Shown: positions 9,029 to 31,987, numbered from the stretch's first letter. The stretch is 64,000 bases of DNA from an uncultured Acidimicrobiales bacterium (GCA_963759645.1 CAVXAI010000013.1:149571-213570), one strand, 5' to 3'. Numbers and translations: made by a program. Notes: generated by a model from the sequence alone, not told the origin.

Positions 9029-9866
9029 TCACGAGTTGCGGGGCGGCGGAAACTTCACCGCCAAGCCCTTCGCACCCAGCTGATAGAGCGGGACGAGCTC
9101 GGGGATGCCGCGGAGCCGTTGGGCCCCGAGGCTGCGATAGCGCACCATCTCGACGGTGTCGCGTCCCGCGGCGTCGCGCGTAGCCCCCGAGACGACGATC
9201 TGCCCGCCATGTGAGACCGCGCAGATCCTCGCGGCAGCATGCACGTCCATGCCGATGTAGTTGCCTTCCGACACAGACGGCTCCCCGGTGTGTATGCCAA
9301 TACGCACTCGCACTGTGGCCGCGCTCGGCCAGGCGCGAGTGCGGAGATCACGCTGGATCGCGATCGCGGCGTCGAGCGCAGGTCCCGGCCGCTCGAAGAC
9401 GGCGAAGAGCTCGTCGGCCCTCGTCTCGACGACGGTCCCGCCCGCGCCGACCGCGGCGTCGATGAGGATGCCCCGAACGCTGTCGATGAGGTCGCGGTAC
9501 CCGTCGCCGAGCTGGTGGACGAGACCAGTTGAATCCTCGATGTCGGTCATCATCATCGTGACCAGACCTGACGGCAGAGCGAGTGGTTGCTTGGCCTGCT
9601 TCTTTCCCCGCTCGCGCTCGTTCTGCAGCTGCCCCGTGATGAAGCCGACCGGCACGATGCCGTACTTCTTCGCCGCGGTGAGGAGCTTCTTGCGGGCCCG
9701 CTCCCGGGCGGCCTCGTCCTCGAATGCGACCTGCTCGAACCGCGCGAGCGCATTGCGCACGTGGGGTTCATCGTTGATGGGAAGCCGGCGCTTTCCTTTG
9801 GAGTCGACGTACGCGAAGGCGCTGTCGGGCAGGTCGAGCGCGCTTGGTCGAGTCGAGCTTGGCCAC
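9029..9866 (-). CDS. Class III adenylate/guanylate cyclase with an N-terminal LPDSAFAY...HVRNALARF module (DUF6582-like, name from memory); frameshift near 9840
   Basis: The cyclase core reads VTMMMTDIEDSTG...VETRADELFAVF...RIGIHTGEP...MDVHAAARI. The N-terminus reads (V)AKLDSTKRA|LDLPDSAFAYVDSKGKRRLPINDEPHVRNALARFEQVAFEDEAARERARKKLLTAAKKYGI. The GTG start is at 9866. Confidence 0.75.
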
Positions 9867-20964: not shown

Positions 20965-22071
20965 TTAGCGATCGGTGGCGGCGTCCTCGTCGAGGGCTCT
21001 CCGGAGCGCTTTTCCTGACCGAGTCAGCATCCTGCGACCTCCGCGCCGGAGGATGCGGAATCGGAACCGCGTCAACAGTCCGCAGTCCTCGAGTCGATAC
21101 CTGTAGCGGACCATCGTTCCGGTGTCGGTGGGTGTGAACTCGAAGGTCTCGATGCAGGGGACGAAGAGCGGCCCGCGACCCAGGGGGACGAAGCGGGTGG
21201 TCAAGTAGCTGTACGGGCGCCAGTCGAGGTATTCGCGCAACGCGTCGCCGTGAACCCCGTGGGCGCAATGGCTCGAGGCCCCCGGTCCGAGCCTTCCTTG
21301 CTGGTTGGGCTGGTTCTTGATCGCGGTCTGCAGCGGCTGCCAACGCAACCGTTTCTCGGGATCGACGAAGTACTGCCACACAACGGCCGGCGGATACGGA
21401 TGCTCGCCGAAGGTGATCTCGACGTCGGCATCCTCGGAGCCGATGTAGACCCTGCGGGCTTCGCGCATCCGGGCAATGGCCGGCTCGAGGTCGTGCACGC
21501 CCCCCGTCGTCTGACCGAACGGCTCGAAGGACTCGCTGTGCGAGGGCAGGACGAACGATGGGGGCATGCGTTGCAGGCAGGGGTCCGTGAGGAAGGCGTA
21601 GGCATGCGGCCCGCCGCCGTCGCCCACGGTGTTCTTCAGCAGGCGGTGGACGAGGATGACGTCCGGTCCGGCGAGGTCCTCCCGGTCGCCGTCAAAGCTG
21701 AGCACATATGTGCCGTAGTGGACGACGAACTTCAGGTCCAGCGAACCGATCGACGCGCACGCGACACAGCGGCACGTAGTCCCGCGCTTCATGTCCAACA
21801 GGCGGTTGGAGAAGTCGAAATAGCAGCTCTCGATGAGCTCCAGAAGCCGCTCACCGTCGTCGAACGATTTCTCGTCCGCGTAGCAGAACACGGCGTCGCC
21901 TTCGAACTGGACGAAGCGCATCGGAGGCGAAAGCCGCTCGCGGATGAGCGCTGTCAGCTCGTGGACGATCGCGTTGGCGTGCTCGAGCTCGGTGCGGACC
22001 AGGAACGCCGTGTAGCCCGAGATGTCGGCCAGCACCAGGTAGCCCCGCCGGGTCCGCTGATCCCGTGACAC
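20965..22071 (-). CDS. DUF2652 (nucleotide-cyclase-like) domain fused to a C-terminal SRPBCC domain
   Basis: YLVLADISGYTAFL and FVQFEGDAVFCYA mimic the two metal-Asp strands of class III cyclases. The C-terminal domain reads PPAVVWQYFVDPEKRLRWQ...FEFTPTDTGTMVRYRY. The ORF is an intact 368 aa. Confidence 0.8.
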   Translation of the reverse strand: MSRDQRTRRGYLVLADISGYTAFLVRTELEHANAIVHELTALIRERLSPPMRFVQFEGDAVFCYADEKSFDDGERLLELIESCYFDFSNRLLDMKRGTTCRCVACASIGSLDLKFVVHYGTYVLSFDGDREDLAGPDVILVHRLLKNTVGDGGGPHAYAFLTDPCLQRMPPSFVLPSHSESFEPFGQTTGGVHDLEPAIARMREARRVYIGSEDADVEITFGEHPYPPAVVWQYFVDPEKRLRWQPLQTAIKNQPNQQGRLGPGASSHCAHGVHGDALREYLDWRPYSYLTTRFVPLGRGPLFVPCIETFEFTPTDTGTMVRYRYRLEDCGLLTRFRFRILRRGGRRMLTRSGKALRRALDEDAATDR

Positions 22072-22191: not shown

Positions 22192-23049
22192 TTAGCGGCC
22201 CAGATACGCGAACAGGTGCGCCTCGCCGATTCCCTTCAGGGTGTACATCCCACGATCGTCAAACGCGACATCGGATGCAAGCACGAGAGTGCGTGTCAGT
22301 TCCGAGGCGAGTACCTCATCCGGCCCGGCCGCCTGCGCGATGCGCGCCACCTCATGCACTGCGACTCCACGGATGTCGGCGGCGACGACCTCGACCTCAC
22401 CAACGTGGACTCCGGCGCGCATGTGAAGCCGCTCGCGATTCGTTCGCTCTCGAATCTCTCCGGCGCACCAAAGCGCCTGCGCGGGACCGTCAAAGGTGAC
22501 GAGCATCCCATCACCGGTCGTCTTCACTTCGCGGCCGTCGAAGCGTTCGAGTTGGGTTCGCACCATCTCGTAGTGCGCCGAAAGCATGTCACGCCACACG
22601 GAGTCTCCAACGGTCGCAGCGGTTGGCGTCGAGTCGACGAGGTCGGTGAGCAGCAGTGTCAGAAGACGCCGACTCTTCGTGGCACGGAAGGAATTGAAGG
22701 CGCGTACGCCGCCCCATTCGATTGTGCTGACTGGCGCGTCGCCGACGACATAGCCGTCGTGACCCGGCGGCATGTCATACACGTCACCCGCGTGAAGCTC
22801 AGTGCGACTGCCGTCCGGATATTCGAACGCGAATGTGCCCGAAAGAATCGTGCCGACGTGACGGGCTTGGCACCATTCACCCCCGACGATCGGGCGCATG
22901 TGAACGGACCACCGCCAACCGGGCATCGCCGTTGAGTGAGCAACAGTGAGATCGCCGACCGTCACCGCGTGTTGCACGACACCAGGGTTCTCGAACACCT
23001 CGTCCGGATGCTCGAAGGACTTCGATTGCCCCGCCACGGCGGCAATCAT
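22192..23049 (-). CDS. Cupin-domain / class III adenylate-guanylate cyclase fusion
   Basis: The cupin part reads GTILSGTFAFEYPDGSRTELHAGDVYDMPPGHDGYV. The cyclase part has LLLTDLVDSTPT, VKTTGDGMLVTF, RAGVHVGEVE and GVAVHEVARI. The ORF is an intact 285 aa. Confidence 0.85.
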   Translation of the reverse strand: MIAAVAGQSKSFEHPDEVFENPGVVQHAVTVGDLTVAHSTAMPGWRWSVHMRPIVGGEWCQARHVGTILSGTFAFEYPDGSRTELHAGDVYDMPPGHDGYVVGDAPVSTIEWGGVRAFNSFRATKSRRLLTLLLTDLVDSTPTAATVGDSVWRDMLSAHYEMVRTQLERFDGREVKTTGDGMLVTFDGPAQALWCAGEIRERTNRERLHMRAGVHVGEVEVVAADIRGVAVHEVARIAQAAGPDEVLASELTRTLVLASDVAFDDRGMYTLKGIGEAHLFAYLGR

Positions 23050-23524: not shown

Positions 23525-23885
23525 GCTAGCTCTTGGTCGTCACCGAGATGTCGTAGAAGGCCGTCGCGTTGTTTACGGGGTGGTAGTCACGGGTGCCGAT
23601 CGCCAGGTCGCCGTTGGGCCTCAAGCTGCCGGAGTCGCGAGCGCTGCGCTTAGTTCTGCAGGCATCGTCGCGACCTTCCGCCGTAGCTGTGCCCCACCAG
23701 GATCACGTCCTTGCCCAGTGCGGACGCATGACGCAACAGTTCTTGTGGCGCACATCAGAGCGCGGGAACGGCCGCGCGGCGCTCGTCGACAAACGGCGCG
23801 ACCGCCGAGTGTGCAATCCCGGAAGCAATCCGGTACCAGAACCCGAAATCCACCGGCCGGAACCCTTGCAGCACTACGGGCTTTT
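23525..23885 (-). pseudogene. N-terminal remnant of an alpha/beta hydrolase (nucleophile elbow present, in-frame TGA, frameshifts)
   Basis: The remnant reads KPVVLQGFRPVDFGFWYRIASGIAHSAVAPFVDERRAAVPAL*CAPQELLRHASALGKDVILVGHSYGG and then loses frame. It abuts tRNA-fragment copy a. Confidence 0.55.
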
Positions 23886-24062
23886 CGTGTCGGAGGGGGG
23901 GACTTGAACTCCCACCGGTCCTGTGATCGCCCGTAGCGCGCTTGCTCTCGGTGTCACGGTTCCGCAGGTCGCGTGGCCTTTCTCGTCGACCCCGCGTGGG
24001 CCGCCGATGGCGGCTGTCCACGGTTGTCTGTGACCAGGGTTGTGACCGCGCTTCGACGCACG
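23850..24062 (-). repeat. tRNA-Leu 3'-end-containing repeat, copy a (core 23888-23914)
   Basis: The core tgtcggagggggggacttgaactccca matches the tRNA T-arm and acceptor 3' half. The left flank is ccggaaccc..ttgcagc. About 150 nt of the right flank is homologous to copy b. Confidence 0.75.
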
Positions 24063-24303
24063 ATGACCAGATCTCGGGACCCATCCCGCCGCCCGGCATC
24101 GCCTGCCGACACCCGTGCGTCGCGGGCTCGTCGAAACGGATGAAACCGGGACGGGAGAGGGGTGTACTCGTCAACTTCTAAGCGGCTACCGCGGCCCCCA
24201 CCCGAGACCATCAACGCCTACCTCGATGAGGCCTACGAACTCGGCAAGGGCTTCAGCGTGCCGCGAGCACCGCGAGCATCGCTCGCCACCAACTAAGCCG
24301 GCC

Positions 24304-24713
24304 ATGAGGCGGCTACCGATCGTCTGGCACCGCCTTGTGTGAGCGGAGGCCGAACGTGCGACCGCTGCGCAGCAACCCAACACGAAGTCGAACACGCTTT
24401 GCACACCCTCGAAGAGGCGCTCCGGCCACTCGAACCACAATTTGAGATCCGCGAACTCGACGAGGTCTCGTTCGAGCAGGGCCCGGCTGCCTCGAACCGC
24501 ATTTGGATCGCCGGTAAGCCGGTCGAAGAGTGGCTCGAAGGCACCGTCGGAAGCGGCCGCTGCTGCTCACTGTGCGGCGACTCGGAGTGCCGCACCGTCG
24601 AGGTCCGGGGCACCACCTTCGACGCCATACCAGAGCGACTCATCCTGCAGGCGTCGCTGCTCGCCATCTCAAGGCTCCTCGACACGCCACCGGCCTCGAG
24701 CGCCTGTGCGTGA
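24304..24713 (+). CDS. DUF2703-family CxxC protein; frameshift near 24340
   Basis: The protein reads MRRLPIVWHRLV | SGGRTCDRCAATQHEVEHALHTLEEALRPL...SNRIWIAGKPVEEWLEGTVGSGRCCSLCGDSECRTVEVRGTTFDAIPERLILQASLLA. This matches the recalled DUF2703 pattern (W.RLV..G.TC.RC ... SNRIW..G.P.E.W ... CC..CG...CRT.EV.G..Y..IP). Confidence 0.7.
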
Positions 24714-24757
24714 GACTCGAAACCGGCAGCGAGAATGTCAGGTCAAACGTTCAGAGC

Positions 24758-24970
24758 GACCCGGAACCACTTCCGTTCCAGCAATCGGACATATCTCGGT
24801 GTCGGAGGGGGGCTTGAACCCCACCGGTCCTGTTCTTGTCTGCGCTGGCTTGGCCTTCGGTGTCACTGGTTCTTCAGGTCGCGGGCCATCGCCTTGACTC
24901 CGACCAAGCCGCCGTTGTCGCTTGTCCGCGGCAGTCTGTGACCATCGAGGTGACCGGCGGTGGTGCACGC
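24758..24970 (-). repeat. tRNA-Leu 3'-end-containing repeat, copy b (core 24800-24823)
   Basis: The core is tgtcggaggggggcttgaacccca. The flanks are homologous to copy a on both sides, at an estimated 65-70 percent identity by eye. Confidence 0.75.
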
Positions 24971-25283: not shown

Positions 25284-28200
25284 TCAGTCGCACACGGAGC
25301 GCGCCAACAACGCATGTCGCGGCATCCCGAGCGCCTCGTAGCCGTCGATCGCTTCCGCGGCCATCGCGCGCGCGGCCTCGCGGTCGCTTGCCAGACCGCG
25401 CAGATGGAGCATCCGCGCGTAGAAGCGCCCGGCATCAATGACTTCGAGCCGCATCGGAAGCTCAGTAGCGCGTTGGATCGCGTCCTGGTAGTGGCCCTCC
25501 GCCAGCGTCCAGTCCCCCGCGCAGGCCGCCGAGATCCCGCACAAGGTGTCGAGCAGGCGGTAGTCCCAGCTGCGCATCAGGCTACCGGTGGCCGCGAGTT
25601 CGACCATCGCGTCGTACAGCGACGCAGCCTCTTCAGTCGCACCGAGCACCGCGAACGCCTCAACAGCGGCGGCCGCGAGGCCCCACTTCGTCGTGGAGTT
25701 TTGACGTCCGCGCACGGGGAACTCGGGTCGCGCGGCGTCGATCAACTCCAGCGCGCGCTGCCGGTTGCCCAAGTATGCGTGCATGAGGAACAGCCGTCCC
25801 AGGTGTCCTCCAGCCGCGCTGCGGCCTTCGAGACGCGCCGCCGCCTCGAACTCGGCGACCGCTTCGCCCCAGCGGCCGGCCCAAAACATCGCTTGGCCGA
25901 CGCGCGTGTGGCCGACCGACATCATCCACGGGAATCCCATCGCGCTGCCGAGCTCCAGCGCATACCGGCCGCGCTGCTCGAGAACCGCCGCATCCGGATG
26001 CCGACCGAACTCTTGGAACGTCTGGCTCTGCTCGGCAAAGACGTACGCCGACCAGTTGCCGAGCCGCTCCGCGAGCGCGAGCCCCTCGCTGTCCGGCGTC
26101 AGCGGCGTCCCCGAACCGACCGAGCCAGCCGAGTGACGTGCCGAGATACCCCATCACGTTTGCGACGTTCCATAGGTCTCCCGCTCGGCGAAGGTGCGCG
26201 ATGCTTTCGCGGCCTTCATCGAGCGTGAGCGCATACTGGTGGTACTGGAAGTGGTGCGCCGCCTGCGAGTACAACGCGAGGCCGAGCATCCCATCGTCAT
26301 CGTGCGCCCGCGCCGCGTCGATTGCCTCCCGGAACTCGTCCTCCGCGCGGTCGTAGTCTCCCGCCTGACTGGCAAGCTGGCCAGCAAGTGCGCAGAACCC
26401 GGCGCGGTAGGCGCTCGGGCGATCCCCGAGCGCGAGCATCCCACGGTCGAGGAGTCGCATCGTCAGGTCGCCTCGGCGCCACAACGCGACTTGGATCGTG
26501 GCACTGAGGCAGAGGCGTGCTACCGCGAGCGCATCGCCCTGTTCCTCCATGGCGTCCAGAGCGTCGCCCCACCGCTCGAGGGCGGCGTCGAGGTGACCGA
26601 GGCTACGCTCGGCCGTTCCCAAACCCTCGAGCACGCGCCGCGCGTCGCGGTCGCATCGTGGCCAAGACGTTCCCAAGCCTGCTCAAAGTAGGCAATCGCG
26701 TCTCCGTAGGCGGCAGCTTCGAGCGCGCGCTCACCGGCCATGACGAGGAAGCGAATGGTGCGATCGGGATCGGCCCAACGCCCAGCGTGCTCGAGGTGGT
26801 AGGCGATCGAGGCCGCGTGCTCCGGCAGTGCGGTCGCGTTGACTTGCTCGAGAGCGTCCGCGAGTCGCGCGTGCAGCCGCTGCCGGTTCACGAGGGTGAT
26901 CCCGTCGGAGAGCGTCCTGCGGATCAAGTCGTGCGCAAACGTGAACCGAACCGACTCGCCCTCGACCGACGAGGTGATGATGCGGGCGCGTTCGGCCTCG
27001 TCGAGGGCGTCGACCAACTCGTTCTCAGGGAGCTCCTGCAGTGCCTCGAGCAGCTCGAAACCGAAGTCGCGCCCGAGGAGACAGACCGTGGTGAGGATCC
27101 GACGCGTGTCGTCACGGAGCGACTCCAAGCGGTTCTCGATCGTGAGTCGGGCACTCTCGGGGACATCGATGTCGCGGAGAAGGACCGTCCTCCAACCCCC
27201 ACCCGCAACCAGCAGACCTTCGTCCGCGAACTGGCGGAGCACCGCGTCGAGGAAAAAAGGATTTCCTTGCGTCGCCTGATGGAGTGCGTTGACCACGTCG
27301 GGCGGAGGCGTGCTCCCGGCGATCGTCATAAGCAACGCCTCCACGTCTGCAGGTGCAAGGTCGTTGAGGACGATGGAGCGCATGAGGTTGCGCCGTTGCA
27401 GCCGCACGAGTGTCTCTCGTAGGGCCGCGGGAACGGATTCATCGCGCGTGTAGGTCGCGGCAACGAAGATCGGCAGGTCGGGCAGCCGTACAGCGAAGGA
27501 CTCGAGGAGCAGGAGCGAGTGCTCGTCGGCCCAGTGAACGTCGTCGAGCAGGATGACCATTGGTCGGACACGCGCGAGGTTTGCGAGCACTTCGCCGACA
27601 GCACCGAACAGGTAACGGCGTTCCTCGCGCGCCGGCATCTTGGCCGGTGGTGGGATCTCTCTGTACATACGCCGGATGACCGGGAGAAGCCGCGCTATCG
27701 CACCGGCATCGTCTCCAAGACAGACGCGGAACTGTTCGGCGCTCATCCTCCGGCGGGACGCGTCGAGGACTTCTACGAACGGGAGGTATGGGTCCGACTT
27801 ACCGACCGACTCGCACCGAGCAGCGACGAACTGGAAGCCTCTCGCCTCGGCCTCGATGCCAACCTCCGCGACCAGCCGCGTCTTCCCGACGCCAGCGTCG
27901 CCCGTGACCACGACCAGTCCGCCTTGGCCCCCGCTCGCGCGACCGATTCCCTCGCGCAACGATGCTTGCTCAGCCTCGCGCCCGACAAAAGGCGCGCGCC
28001 CTTCGAGGTGCCGTGCCGGTTCGGCGAACTCCCCGTCGGTCGCCTCGAACAGGCGCCACTGCTCGCGAAGACCTTTCAGCCAGAACAACCCGCGATCGAC
28101 GAACGTGTACGCCGGTGCGTCCACTTGCTCACGGACGGCCTCGGAGAGGAGAACCTGCCCGCTGCGCGCCTTTGCGGCAATGCGCGCCGCGGCGTTCACG

Positions 28201-28538
28201 GCGAGACCGAACACATCGCCTTGCTCCTCGATGACCGAGCCGAAGTTCAGTCCGAACCGCACGCGCGGGGCGTCGGCAGGGTGTCCGCTGGCGAGCTCCT
28301 CAAGGCGCGCCCGCATTTCGAGCGCTCCCGCAACGCCGCCAGTGCAAGTCGGGAACACGACCAGGAACCCGTCACCCGTCGACTTCACGACTCGGCCGTT
28401 CTGAGCTTCGGCGGCATAACGAATGACGCGCTCGTGATCACGCAGAAGCGCTACCGCCACCTCGTCGCCGTGGGCGCTCGCGAACGCGGTCGAGCCCTCC
28501 ATGTCTGTGAAGAGGATCGTCATCGGAGGCGTGCTCAT
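25284..28538 (-). CDS. Class III nucleotide cyclase - STAND/AAA_16 P-loop NTPase - TPR multidomain protein (about 1085 aa); frameshifts near 26660 and 26100
   Basis: The cyclase part has ILFTDMEGSTAF, KSTGDGFLVVF and FGLNFGSVIE. Walker A is VVTGDAGVGKTRL and Walker B is MVILLDDVHWAD. TPR-like repeats run through ORFs 25660..26676 and 25284..25940 (...EAIDGYEALGMPRHALLARSVCD*). No C-terminal HTH was found. Confidence 0.85.
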
Positions 28539-28609
28539 ACGGCGCAGTTGCCCAGATCGATTTCCTCATGCACACTTGCACATCTCCAAAGCACCGGAAG
28601 GGGTGTCCG

Positions 28610-28978
28610 ATGCCAGCAGCCGCAGTTGCTTTCAAACTTGGGTCGGTGCTGACGCCAGAGAACCTCGCACAGTTGGGTGGGGACGCGAGTTTGATGTCGC
28701 GCCTCGCCACCGAAGGAAGCTTGGTCGAGCTGGCCCAGGAGTTCGGGGAGATCACCGACCCGGACGAGGTCGAATACTTCAGTTCAATCCCGCGCGCAAT
28801 CCAAGAGTCCATCCGCGTCGCGATCCGGGCGGCGATCCAGGATGGCAAGGGCGTGCAGATCCAGTTCTCGCCCGCATACGACTTTGGGCTCCGCATTTGG
28901 GACTATGGGCAGGCGATCAGCGTGCACTTGGAAGGGCCCTACACCGAAGCCACGATGCCCACGCGACTCTCGCAGTAA
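28610..28978 (+). CDS. Hypothetical 122-aa protein, divergent from the cyclase-STAND gene
   Basis: The ATG at 28610 follows GGAAGGGG. The protein reads MPAAAVAFKLGSVLTPENLAQLGGDASLMSRLATEGSLVELAQEFGEITDPDEVEYFSSIPRAIQESIRVAIRAAIQDGKGVQIQFSPAYDFGLRIWDYGQAISVHLEGPY. I recognise no family. Confidence 0.5.
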   Translation: MPAAAVAFKLGSVLTPENLAQLGGDASLMSRLATEGSLVELAQEFGEITDPDEVEYFSSIPRAIQESIRVAIRAAIQDGKGVQIQFSPAYDFGLRIWDYGQAISVHLEGPYTEATMPTRLSQ

Positions 28979-29117
28979 CCCGTTGCGCGACTGGGGCCGA
29001 CGACCACTCGGTCCCGCCGCGGCCAGGGCTACACCCAAATCCCAGCACGACGCGCCGCCCGACGGCCGTAGTCCGCCGAGCGCGACATCTCCGCTCACAG
29101 GATTCAGCGCAGAACCC

Positions 29118-29200
29118 CACCACCGGAACCCCTTGCAGCCGTAGGCGATCGTGGTGTCGGAGGGGGACTTGAACTCCCACGAGGCCCGTTATCGCCCTGA
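29118..29200 (-). repeat. tRNA-Leu 3'-end-containing repeat, copy c (core 29155-29179, followed by CCA in the tRNA sense)
   Basis: The core is tgtcggagggggacttgaactccca. The left flank caccggaacccc ttgcagcc and about 20 nt of the right flank are homologous to copy a. Confidence 0.75.
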
Positions 29201-29491
29201 CGCACGGCCGTACAACCCGAACCGGTTCTCGCGGGAGTTCGACCGGGCGCTCGCCCGGCACCCCGATCTCGCCCGCATCCGCCTGCACGACCTTCGGCAC
29301 ACCTGGGCCACGCTGGCACTCCAGGCCGGCGTCCCGGTGAAGATCGTTAGTGAGCGTCTCGGTCACTCGACGACATCGATAACGAGCGACACGTATTCAC
29401 ACGTGACACCACGACGAGAGCCGACGCCGCCGAGCGAGTCGCGAGCCTCATCTTCCCGGCGTCGCGACCAACTGGTGACCGGGGACCCTGA
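29181..29491 (+). pseudogene. Tyrosine recombinase (phage-integrase family), C-terminal catalytic about 100 aa only
   Basis: The fragment reads RPYNPNRFSREFDRALARHPDLARIRLHDLRHTWATLALQAGVPVKIVSERLGHSTTSITSDTYSHV (HxxR, LGH, catalytic Y). After a frameshift it continues ADAAERVASLIFPASRP. The N-terminal two-thirds are absent, and homology starts right at repeat copy c. Confidence 0.8.
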
Positions 29492-29530
29492 GACAAAGGG
29501 CAAGCACTGGGGTTGAACTGCGCAAACTTC

Positions 29531-29614
<84 letters not shown>

Positions 29615-29649
29615 CGTGGGGCCGTTGACTGTAGCGAAAGCCTGCTGGC

Positions 29650-29919: not shown

Positions 29920-30951
29920 TCAGACCAGCTCAGCAGCGAGCTCGGCAAAGTGGCAGGCCACGGGGTGGCCCTGTCCACGGTCGATCAGCGCTGGCTCTTC
30001 GGTCGCGCAGATGTCCTGCGCCTTCCAGCACCGGGTGCGGAACCGGCAACCACTCGGCGGGTCGATGGGGCTGGGCACATCGCCGGTGAGCACGATCCGC
30101 TTGCGCTTGCGTTCCTTCTTCGGGTCCGCCATGGGGATCGCCGACAACAGGGCTTGCGTGTACGGATGCGCGGCCTTGGTGTAGAGGTCGTCTGCCGGCG
30201 CCATCTCGACGAGCTTGCCGAGGTACATCACCGCGACGACGTCCGAGATGTGCTGCACCACCGAGAGGTCGTGGGCGATGAAGAGGTACGCGAGCCCGAG
30301 TCGATCCTGCAGGTCCTCGAGGAGGTTCACGACGCCGGCCTGTATCGAGACGTCGAGTGCGGACACCGGCTCGTCGAGCACGACGACACTGGGGTCGAGG
30401 GCGAGCGCTCGAGCGACACCCACGCGTTGGCGCTGTCCACCTGAGAACTCGTGTGGATAGCGGTTGGCGTGCTGCCGGTTCAGCCCGACGAGCGACAGCA
30501 GCTCCTCGACTCGGCTCCGGTGATCCCCGGGCACCTTGTTGATGACAAGCGGCTCGGCGACCGCGGCGCCGATCGTCATCCGGGGATCGAGCGACGCGTA
30601 TGGGTCCTGGAAGACGATCTGCATCTCCCGGCGCAGCGCGCGCATCTGGCGGGGGCCCAGCGTGGTGACCTCCTGCTCGCGGAAGTAGACGGAGCCGGAC
30701 GTCGGCTCGATCAGCCGGAGGATGCAGCGGCCGACCGTCGACTTGCCCGAGCCGGACTCGCCGACGAGACCGAGGGTTTGCGACGGAGCGATCGCGAACG
30801 ACACGTCCGACACCGCCTGCACCACGCCCTTGATGGACTTGATGCCCTTGTGGCTCGTGACGTTGAAGTTCTTCACGAGGTGCTCGACCCGAAGGATCGG
30901 GGGCGTCGATCGGCGCGTCGGGGACGCTCGCTTCGACCGCGATGGTGCTCA
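29920..30951 (-). CDS. Peptide/nickel-type ABC transporter ATPase (OppF/DppF-like); probable frameshift near 30890
   Basis: [37 protein letters not shown] and the C-terminal oligopeptide motif GCRFRTRC are present. The upstream [12 protein letters not shown] and the GTG overlapping the OppD stop lie in different frames. Confidence 0.85.
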
Positions 30952-31987
30952 CTGCTCGATGTCCCAGTGGCCTATGAGCTGCTCGCTGAAGTGGCAGGCC
31001 GCCTCTTGGTCGTGCGCGCCGACGAGCCGGAGGTTCGGCACCTCGACCGTGCAGATCTCCGCCGAGTACTTGCACCGTGGTGCGAAGGCACAGCCCGGCG
31101 GTGGGGCCAGCATGTTCGGCGGCGACCCGGGGATCGGACGCAGCCGATGCGCTTGACCAGTCGGGATCGAGCTCAACAGCCCCACTGTGTAGGGATGTGC
31201 GGGGTTCTCGAACAGGTCGTCGATGTTCGCGAGCTCCACGCTGCGGCCCGCGTACATCACCCGAACACGATGAGCGAGACGGGCGATGACGCCGAGGTCG
31301 TGGGTGATGAAGACGATCGCGCTGCGGGTCAGCTCCTGGACCTGTTGGATGACCTCGAGGATCTGCGCCTGGATCGTGACATCGAGCGCAGTCGTGGGCT
31401 CGTCCGCGATGAGCACTTCGGGGTCGTTGCAGATCGCCATCGCGATCATCGCCCGCTGCCGCATGCCGCCGGAGAACTCGTGCGGGTATTGACGCGGCTC
31501 GTGTCTTCGACTGGGGGATGCCCACCAGGTCGAGCATCTCGATCGCCCGCTTCGTGGCCGCGTCGCCGTTGAGGTCCTGGTGCGCCTGCACGGCCTCGGC
31601 GATTTGGTCGCCGACGCGCAGCACCGGGTTCAGCGCCGTCAGCGGATCCTGGAAGATCATCGCGATCTTCGCCCCGCGGTACTTGCGGGCCTCGCTCGGC
31701 TCGAGCCCGATGAGCTCGGTGCCGCGAAACCTTGCTGACCCGGAGATCTGGGCCGTCCTGTGGAGCAGTCCCATCACGGCGAGCATCGTCACGGACTTGC
31801 CCGACCCCGACTCCCCCACGACACCGAGCACCTCACCGGCGTGGACGACGAGATCGTTCCCGCGCACCGCGTAGACGGGACCGTCTTCGGTGGGGAACGT
31901 GACGTGCAGGTCGCGGATCTCGAGCACGGGCTCACCCGCCGCGGCACCTTCCCGCGCGCTCGCCGCGCCCGGCGTCGTGACCGCCAT
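30949..31987 (-). CDS. Peptide/nickel-type ABC transporter ATPase (OppD/DppD-like); frameshift near 31478
   Basis: The N-terminal half MAVTTPG...VLEIRDLHVTFPTEDGPVYAV...[12 protein letters not shown] lies in the frame of ORF 29930..32449. The C-terminal half (YPHEFSGG)MRQRAMIAMA...ADEPTTALD...GCAFAPRC is ORF 30949..31464. Confidence 0.85.

Follow-up and report, generated by a model that had tools for sequence, protein, structure and literature searches.

A class III cyclase-STAND-TPR protein and its divergently encoded 122-aa neighbour in an uncultured Acidimicrobiales bacterium: a candidate two-gene signalling module

The mycobacterial Mclx proteins Rv0386, Rv1358 and Rv2488c consist of a cyclase-homology domain, an AAA/NB-ARC ATPase, with tetratricopeptide repeats (TPRs) in Rv0386, and a LuxR-type helix-turn-helix (HTH) domain (PMC4452763; bioRxiv 10.1101/2024.03.06.583649). 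Related combinations serve other ends. Regulators of the MalT/LAL/AfsR group join an AAA_16 NTPase to a TPR-like superhelical sensor, and antiviral Avs proteins place an N-terminal effector before a central STAND NTPase and a C-terminal repeat sensor. According to a 2026 survey of STAND NTPases, 198 of 589 clades are associated with defence, and non-immune clades are scattered among them; its main text does not contain the word 'cyclase' and does not name class III cyclases among the effector types (PMC13581612). Here we analyze a stretch of 64,000 nucleotides from an uncultured Acidimicrobiales bacterium (GCA_963759645.1, CAVXAI010000013.1:149571-213570), hereafter the window, which between positions 25284 and 28978 encodes a cyclase-STAND-TPR protein of about 1082 aa and, in the opposite direction, an unannotated protein of 122 aa.

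We propose that these two genes form a physiological signalling module, not a phage-defence system, in which a STAND/TPR-gated class III adenylate cyclase is accompanied by a dedicated 122-aa partner, and we consider this reading moderately probable. The architecture of the large protein is itself common; the novel element is its conserved partnership with the small one. Many proteins of the cyclase-STAND-TPR type are found in Actinomycetota and Chloroflexota of soils, where they are annotated by their domains only. A strictly co-inherited small partner offers a testable handle on what the TPRs bind and on whether the cyclase is thereby activated or restrained, and with the module one could cleanly test whether an enzyme that needs to dimerise can be turned on through oligomerisation of a STAND protein.

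The large gene (25284-28538, minus strand) is spread over three overlapping minus-strand open reading frames (ORFs), 26520-28538, 25660-26676 and 25284-25940, which make up one collinear protein when two single-base indels are read through. Its N-terminal part is a class III nucleotidyl cyclase catalytic domain (28065-28529, aa 4-158), and the corresponding Pfam family, Guanylate_cyc PF00211, exceeds its gathering score of 21.9 bits both in the window ORF (53.4 bits) and in P0001 (50.8 bits), the intact 1079-aa form of the same protein. It is followed by an AAA_16 P-loop NTPase core of the MalT-type STAND class (27465-27992, aa 183-358; PF13191, 95.9 bits against a cut-off of 32.6). The C-terminal region (25284-26740, roughly aa 600-1082), which contains both indels, is a TPR/superhelical sensor: Pfam finds TPR matches in the C-terminal pieces of the window gene, and TPR_12 scores 31.4 bits in the intact P0001 (cut-off 30.1). 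When a profile of 41 homologs was compared with the PDB, consensus TPR proteins (E 2e-13) and the TPRs of LGN/Pins were matched; no solved MalT or AfsR structure was among the top 60 matches, the STAND part drawing only cyclases and TPR proteins.

The diagnostic motifs of each part could be located on the minus strand. The cyclase domain has FTDMEGST (28488-28511) and KSTGDGF (28365-28385), each carrying a metal-binding Asp, and the NTPase has the Walker A motif GDAGVGKT (27879-27902) and the Walker B motif LLDDVHWAD (27525-27551). The protein thus combines the features by which STAND proteins are recognised, namely a Walker A of the form GxxxxGK[ST], a Walker B of the form hhhhDD and C-terminal TPRs. 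A first-pass annotation, made from the DNA alone, had described a protein of about 1085 aa with these three parts and had quoted the same four motifs, a description that Pfam and the motif positions bear out.

A search of 5.8 billion proteins returned at least 1820 homologs below the E-value threshold, and the domain content of 120 listed homologs was inspected. These are mostly collinear with the window protein, are 1080-1110 aa long (about 1090 aa) and contain cyclase, AAA_16 and TPR domains, the last as matches to TPR_1, TPR_2, TPR_12 and, in some, TPR_MalT (PF17874), a family that they share with the MalT group. They come from Acidimicrobiia, other Actinomycetota and Dehalococcoidia, and are named in their sources 'class 3 adenylate cyclase/TPR repeat protein' or 'AAA family ATPase'. 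Among the NCBIfam models, the TOMM kinase/cyclase fusion TIGR03903 is collinear with the window protein from the cyclase through the AAA_16 domain into the helical region (model positions 364-1064, aa 66-753 of the protein), but its score of 148 bits is far under the cut-off of 705 bits, and the window protein has neither the N-terminal kinase nor a TOMM context.

The closest solved cyclase domains are those of Ma1120 of M. avium (4wp9, E 4e-24) and of Rv1900c/LipJ (1ybt, E 3.5e-18). Both differ from the window protein in being isolated or fused to an alpha/beta-hydrolase, with no STAND or TPR part, but every catalytic position is aligned: the Asp/Asp, Lys/Asp and Asn/Arg pairs and the Lys of Ma1120 all have their counterparts, the transition-state Asn and Arg lying in AVNAAAR. 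We counted the conservation of these residues over 116 full-length homologs. The two metal-binding Asp are kept in 113 and 116 of them, the substrate-specifying Lys in 115 and its partner Asp in 114, and the transition-state Asn in 93. The transition-state Arg, the phosphate-binding Lys, the Walker A Lys and the second Walker B Asp are each present in all 116. In class III cyclases a substrate-specifying Lys/Asp pair denotes ATP as the substrate. Given the conservation of both the cyclase catalytic and the Walker residues, the protein appears to join a working adenylate cyclase to a working STAND NTPase, and it is most likely, judging by these residues and by analogy with better known relatives, that the former is switched by oligomerisation of the latter. 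Catalytic degeneracy had been named beforehand as an observation that would speak against a signal-generating STAND enzyme; the catalytic residues are intact, and that reading of the gene is the natural one.

The comparison with the Mclx proteins is close at the N-terminus and in the center, where a class III cyclase precedes a STAND-type ATPase, and NCBIfam gives sub-threshold matches over the ATPase region to the LuxR-type STAND regulators AbsR2 and IniR. It breaks down at the C-terminus, where neither the window protein nor its listed homologs carry a LuxR/GerE HTH. No HTH family is found by Pfam in P0001, the ORFs of the 460 bp past the stop codon contain no Pfam family, and the LuxR/GerE domain (PF00196) occurs in none of the 120 homologs listed. 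This agrees with the earlier description of a protein lacking an HTH both before and beyond its stop, and the literature agrees with its statement that the mycobacterial relatives carry an additional LuxR HTH (PMC4452763; bioRxiv 10.1101/2024.03.06.583649). The window protein differs from Mclx also in its canonical Lys/Asp pair, in its conserved small partner gene and in its Acidimicrobiia-type hosts. Likewise, it departs from the MalT/LAL/AfsR regulators in that its effector is an N-terminal cyclase enzyme and not a DNA-binding domain. The domain evidence supports the view that the large protein is not a LuxR-type transcription factor.

The small gene (28610-28978, plus strand) begins 71 bp from the ATG of the large gene at 28538 and encodes an acidic protein (isoelectric point, pI, 4.4) that belongs to no family in Pfam, NCBIfam or PADLOC, as the first-pass annotation had proposed for a divergent, family-less ORF at this distance. 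The exact 122-aa protein is present on 22 public contigs, and a profile search of 1.84 billion representative proteins (E up to 0.001) gathered 95 family clusters at 50% identity, mostly 115-135 aa long, with the motifs YL..P...EA.RA and SPAYDF...WDYG...VHL.GPY. The 71-bp divergent intergenic region (28539-28609) contains a promoter-like pair and a Shine-Dalgarno sequence. Across the 14 intergenic regions compared, a pair of the form TTG, about 17 nt, (C/G)A(G/C)ACT is kept, and the strong GGAAGGGG Shine-Dalgarno ahead of the small ORF is conserved; a scan for E. coli-type consensus promoters found none in this DNA, whose GC content is 66%. Substitutions between orthologs of the small ORF are commonest at codon position 3, and protein length and motifs are kept down to 36% identity. 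Because of these expression signals, this substitution pattern and this conservation, the small ORF is, as far as comparative sequence can establish it, a real gene.

An AlphaFold2 model built from a 40-sequence alignment (pLDDT 92.7) predicts six helices followed by a three-stranded sheet. Foldseek returned nothing significant for this model, either against the PDB (best E 0.25, TM 0.30) or against the viral structures of BFVD (best E 0.08), and the predicted fold is apparently new. Pfam searched at E up to 1 gave HATPase_c_2 in five of 40 members (best E 0.022), which we regard as noise since no match to a GHKL fold accompanied it. Five members of the family (P0132, P0141, P0142, P0144 and P0146) have a Lys/Arg-rich C-terminal tail of 30-40 aa and a pI of about 10, a tail that is absent from the acidic window protein and that may bind nucleic acid in those lineages.

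Loci encoding close relatives of the small protein were retrieved by pattern with alignment A4, the broad alignment A3 being too diverse. In every such locus with enough upstream DNA (L009-L011, L014-L020, L022-L029, L031 and the P0002 contig) a cyclase-STAND-TPR gene lies divergently, 85-110 bp away. Across these loci the STAND protein is 46-85% and the small protein 36-76% identical to its counterpart in the window. The flanking genes vary: the window has SecG, opp and tRNA-Leu, L009 has RibD_C and fasciclin, L010 and L011 have PadR, tRNA-Thr and a Crp-type regulator, L014 has PAP2 and P450, and elsewhere there are glycerol-3-phosphate dehydrogenase, enoyl-CoA hydratases, methyltransferases, heliorhodopsin and others. 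A Dehalococcoidia homolog with 41% identity, the one member of its clade that was examined, is without the small ORF. Consistent pairing, differing flanks and this unpaired homolog together identify the pair, on comparative grounds, as a conserved relocatable unit within an Acidimicrobiia-centered subclade of a much larger family. The small ORF had been expected to be kept beside the homologs of the large gene, and it is; the homologs are not core, syntenic housekeeping genes, since they occur in varying contexts. In the clade that has the small ORF, TPR region (51-53%) and NTPase (49-52%) are about equally conserved. In comparison with the clade of the Dehalococcoidia homolog no other part has diverged as far as the TPR region (34-38%), and this would agree with a change in the ligand that is sensed. 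The heliorhodopsin gene mentioned above (L031, 8524-9210) lies directly downstream of the cyclase-STAND gene on an actinobacterial contig of 2.07 Mb.

The site of the pair in the window is a tRNA-Leu integration array that has decayed, in accordance with the original placement of the gene between tRNA-fragment repeats in an integration hotspot. The integration target is an intact tRNA-Leu(gag) gene (29531-29615, minus strand, found by ARAGORN). Copies of its 3' end occur at 23884-23914, the outermost repeat, and at 24799-24822 and 29154-29179, which bound the 4.3-kb segment with the pair on its left and its right respectively. These attachment-site-like (att-like) repeats reproduce the last 25-31 nt of the tRNA in direct orientation with 92-96% identity and flank the cargo. 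Between the last repeat and the tRNA lies a C-terminal remnant of a tyrosine integrase (29198-29516, plus strand; PF00589 positions 101-170 of 172, E 7.5e-12), which is also present in short-read contigs; of the integrase just this C-terminal third is left, and no functional one was found at the array. Sites 23845-23932 and 29112-29197 resemble each other beyond the tRNA fragment on both sides (73-86% over about 90 nt). The arrangement suggests repeated integration of related elements at this tRNA.

In L010 and L011 a tRNA-Thr(cgt) abuts the 3' end of the cyclase-STAND gene. We looked there for a tRNA-Thr att repeat around the pair, and the 12-nt match in L011 (E 0.07) was too weak to be accepted. 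Because the att-like array in the window, the position of the pair immediately 3' of tRNA-Thr in these two loci and the variable contexts agree, the sequence evidence supports acquisition of the pair through integrative elements that have since decayed. Another segment of the window array, 0.9 kb between two tRNA-Leu fragments (23914-24799), carries a DUF2703 protein with Cys-rich motifs (24339-24713, plus strand, 98 bits), and may have been left behind, separately, by an earlier integration.

How the two products might work together can be sketched from the families to which the large protein belongs. Class III cyclases must dimerise to be active, their active sites being composite and shared, and MalT-type STAND NTPases pass from closed monomers to oligomers upon ligand binding and nucleotide exchange. 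For a fusion of the two, proximity-driven activation of cyclic AMP (cAMP) synthesis is the simplest model. The protein would be soluble, and its class III adenylate cyclase would be under the control of the MalT-type STAND NTPase and the TPR sensor. At rest the protein would be a closed, ADP-bound monomer; the binding of a cue by the TPR array would bring about nucleotide exchange and oligomerisation of the NTPase domains. Oligomerisation would in turn bring the N-terminal cyclase domains together and, because class III cyclases need dimers, would switch on cAMP synthesis. The cAMP would be read by receptors encoded elsewhere. A Crp-type regulator (cNMP_binding plus HTH_Crp_2) adjoins the module in some relatives, 0.1-0.6 kb past the small ORF (L011, 9007-9702; L010, 5549-6124), and these genes fit a cAMP output that is read by transcription factors.

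The 122-aa protein is probably a dedicated partner of the TPR sensor, because it is always co-located with the cyclase-STAND gene and its presence correlates with the TPR subtype. Its most likely function, by comparison with the protein inhibitors of MalT, would be that of a protein ligand or brake of the sensor, and the logic expected of the module would be that of MalT, with ligand-controlled oligomerisation and small protein inhibitors. The two genes would move between genomic sites as a unit.

Several points weigh against this proposal. Production of cAMP and activation by oligomerisation are argued by analogy, and no gene for a cAMP receptor lies in the window. Neither a recognisable fold nor a function-assigning motif was found for the small protein in the PDB, BFVD or Pfam at E up to 1, and the occurrence of its distant relatives beside alpha/beta-hydrolase-TIR proteins suggests that its function is broader and may belong to biological conflict. 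Accessory or defence genes, too, are typically seen in integration arrays and in variable contexts. Finally, if both indels in the large gene were real, this particular copy would be dead.

Of the alternatives, the one that survives best, although we regard it as unlikely, is an Avs-like defence or conflict module, in which the TPRs would sense a phage or mobile-element protein, the cyclase would emit a cyclic-nucleotide alarm, and the small protein would serve as adaptor, guard or effector. The likeness to Avs is in the tripartite order of effector, STAND NTPase and repeat sensor. Such a layout alone is no evidence of a defence role, and PADLOC found neither Avs nor any other complete system in P0001. 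Its only result was a partial match to PycC of Pycsar (aa 2-76, E 1e-5), which shares the class III-type cyclase fold; the match covers less than half of the domain, and the Lys/Asp pair of the window protein indicates ATP and not a pyrimidine nucleotide as substrate. The STAND and TPR parts have no Pycsar counterpart. The window has no gene for a cyclic nucleotide (cNMP)-activated effector beside the pair, and in L010 and L011 the neighbours that bind cNMP are regulators of the Crp type, not toxins.

The genomic surroundings are equally relevant to the defence alternative. The pair sits between att-like repeats with an integrase remnant adjoining, its contexts differ among genomes, a CHAT protein is encoded 7 kb away in L009, and a distant member of the small-protein family, described below, has a TIR protein as its neighbour and PIN and integrase genes nearby. 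Island position by itself is no indication of defence. PADLOC was run on 79 flanking proteins from nine contexts, a small sample, and revealed no bona fide defence genes. All its matches were partial and to generic domains: SAM-methyltransferase folds, ABC ATPases, a kinase, the CHAT protein and, for the Crp-type neighbours, the half of PycTIR that binds cNMP. By Pfam domains the flanks are ordinary metabolic or transport genes. Furthermore, no relative of either protein was found in 2.9 million viral contigs (IMG/VR), and none of the large protein in 50,697 phage records. A plasmid search gave no close relatives, only homologs of 23-28% identity on rhizobial and Cupriavidus megaplasmids, annotated as adenylate/guanylate cyclase or AAA ATPase. 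The TPR sensor is not hypervariable, being as conserved as the NTPase within the small-ORF clade, and the length of the family is uniform at about 1090 aa over two phyla.

In the tests run, membership of the pair in a defence system is not supported, and its role is probably one of ordinary cell signalling. The first-pass annotation had seen an Avs-like protein here and had suggested looking for homologs near defence genes. Its signal-generating STAND enzyme without HTH, its paired ORF and its integration array all hold; the defence role is not supported, the likeness to Avs being limited to the layout, and no bona fide defence genes appeared in the nine contexts.

It is quite unlikely, in our estimate, that the small protein is instead the missing DNA-binding output or autoregulator, so that the module would be a split version of the mycobacterial cyclase-ATPase-LuxR regulator in which the small protein controls the divergent promoter. 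The constant divergence of the two genes over 71-110 bp with conserved promoter-like elements would suit such a function, as would the all-helical bundle predicted by AlphaFold2 for the N-terminal half of the small protein and the long Lys/Arg-rich tail of several family members, with a pI of about 10, which recalls nucleoid-binding proteins. But the close members, including the window protein, are acidic and without this tail, no HTH or other DNA-binding family was detected in 40 members at E up to 1, and no DNA-binding protein of the PDB was matched structurally. Nor was any conserved palindromic operator seen in the intergenic regions compared.

Distant members of the small-protein family raise another possibility. 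The gene for P0234 (117 aa; L033, 7001-8588, in a genome of 5.03 Mb) has downstream of it, at a distance of 14 bp and in the same direction, one for an alpha/beta-hydrolase-TIR protein of 406 aa (TIR_2, E 1e-21), with PIN and integrase genes 3-4 kb upstream. The small ORFs of L035 and L036 have beside them a divergent gene whose product begins with a related alpha/beta-hydrolase N-terminus. The small proteins might then be a new modular family of adaptors or guards that associate with different nucleotide-signalling effectors, and the pair an unrecognised conflict or immune-like system with a cAMP alarm raised by a STAND sensor. If this were true, the effector would be the cyclase-STAND-TPR protein in Acidimicrobiia and the alpha/beta-hydrolase-TIR protein in a distant lineage. 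We find this decidedly improbable.

The two frameshifts bear on whether the large gene is functional in this genome. At 26639-26640 one G is missing from a GCGCGC run in comparison with six short-read contigs (L002-L005, L007 and L008), and at 26090 there is one extra T in comparison with five short-read contigs and two other long-read contigs. The intact form P0001 is uninterrupted in five independent short-read contigs (L003-L005, L007 and L008), which are 99.8-99.9% identical to the window at the DNA level where measured, and the partial short-read contigs L002 and L006 are also free of indels at the sites that they cover, so that seven contigs speak for one or both sites. Two other long-read-style contigs of the same population have different indels, mostly in CGCG contexts. 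Within the window, two opp-type ABC-ATPase genes (29920-30876 and 30949-31464) are truncated by single-base insertions at 30907 and 31496 relative to L002 and L006, giving proteins of 318 aa in place of 343 and of 171 aa in place of 345. Since the window shows about 0.5 indels per kb overall and housekeeping genes are hit too, the two frameshifts of the cyclase-STAND gene are probably assembly errors and not pseudogenisation. Frameshifts had been reported near 26660 and 26100; they are present, at about 26639 and at 26090, and it is their biological meaning that probably falls away.

That this copy is a decaying pseudogene, the dead cargo of a degraded integrative element, is very unlikely: two indels do break its frame, the extra T at 26090 lies outside any homopolymer or GC-repeat context and the flanking integrase is reduced to a C-terminal stump, but the same kind of 1-nt indel is found in essential-looking opp genes, other long-read contigs carry different indels, the short-read contigs are without them, and, indels aside, the coding sequence matches the intact form at 99-100% identity. 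The pseudogene appearance of the locus is most likely an artefact of long-read assembly. The window apparently derives from an error-prone long-read assembly, and its other 'pseudogenes' are therefore equally suspect.

Other cyclase genes are found in the same region. Just left of the tRNA-Leu repeat array are a gene for a cupin plus class III cyclase protein, LipJ-like by NCBIfam (151 bits), and a DUF2652/Polyketide_cyc2 gene, at 22192-23049 and 20965-22071 respectively, both on the minus strand; they have the same placement in the related contigs L001 and L012. A third class III cyclase-like domain, at about 9173-9562 on the minus strand, is 30% identical to the cyclase domain of P0001 (E 1.6e-8), and the window thus contains at least three cyclase-domain genes inside 20 kb.

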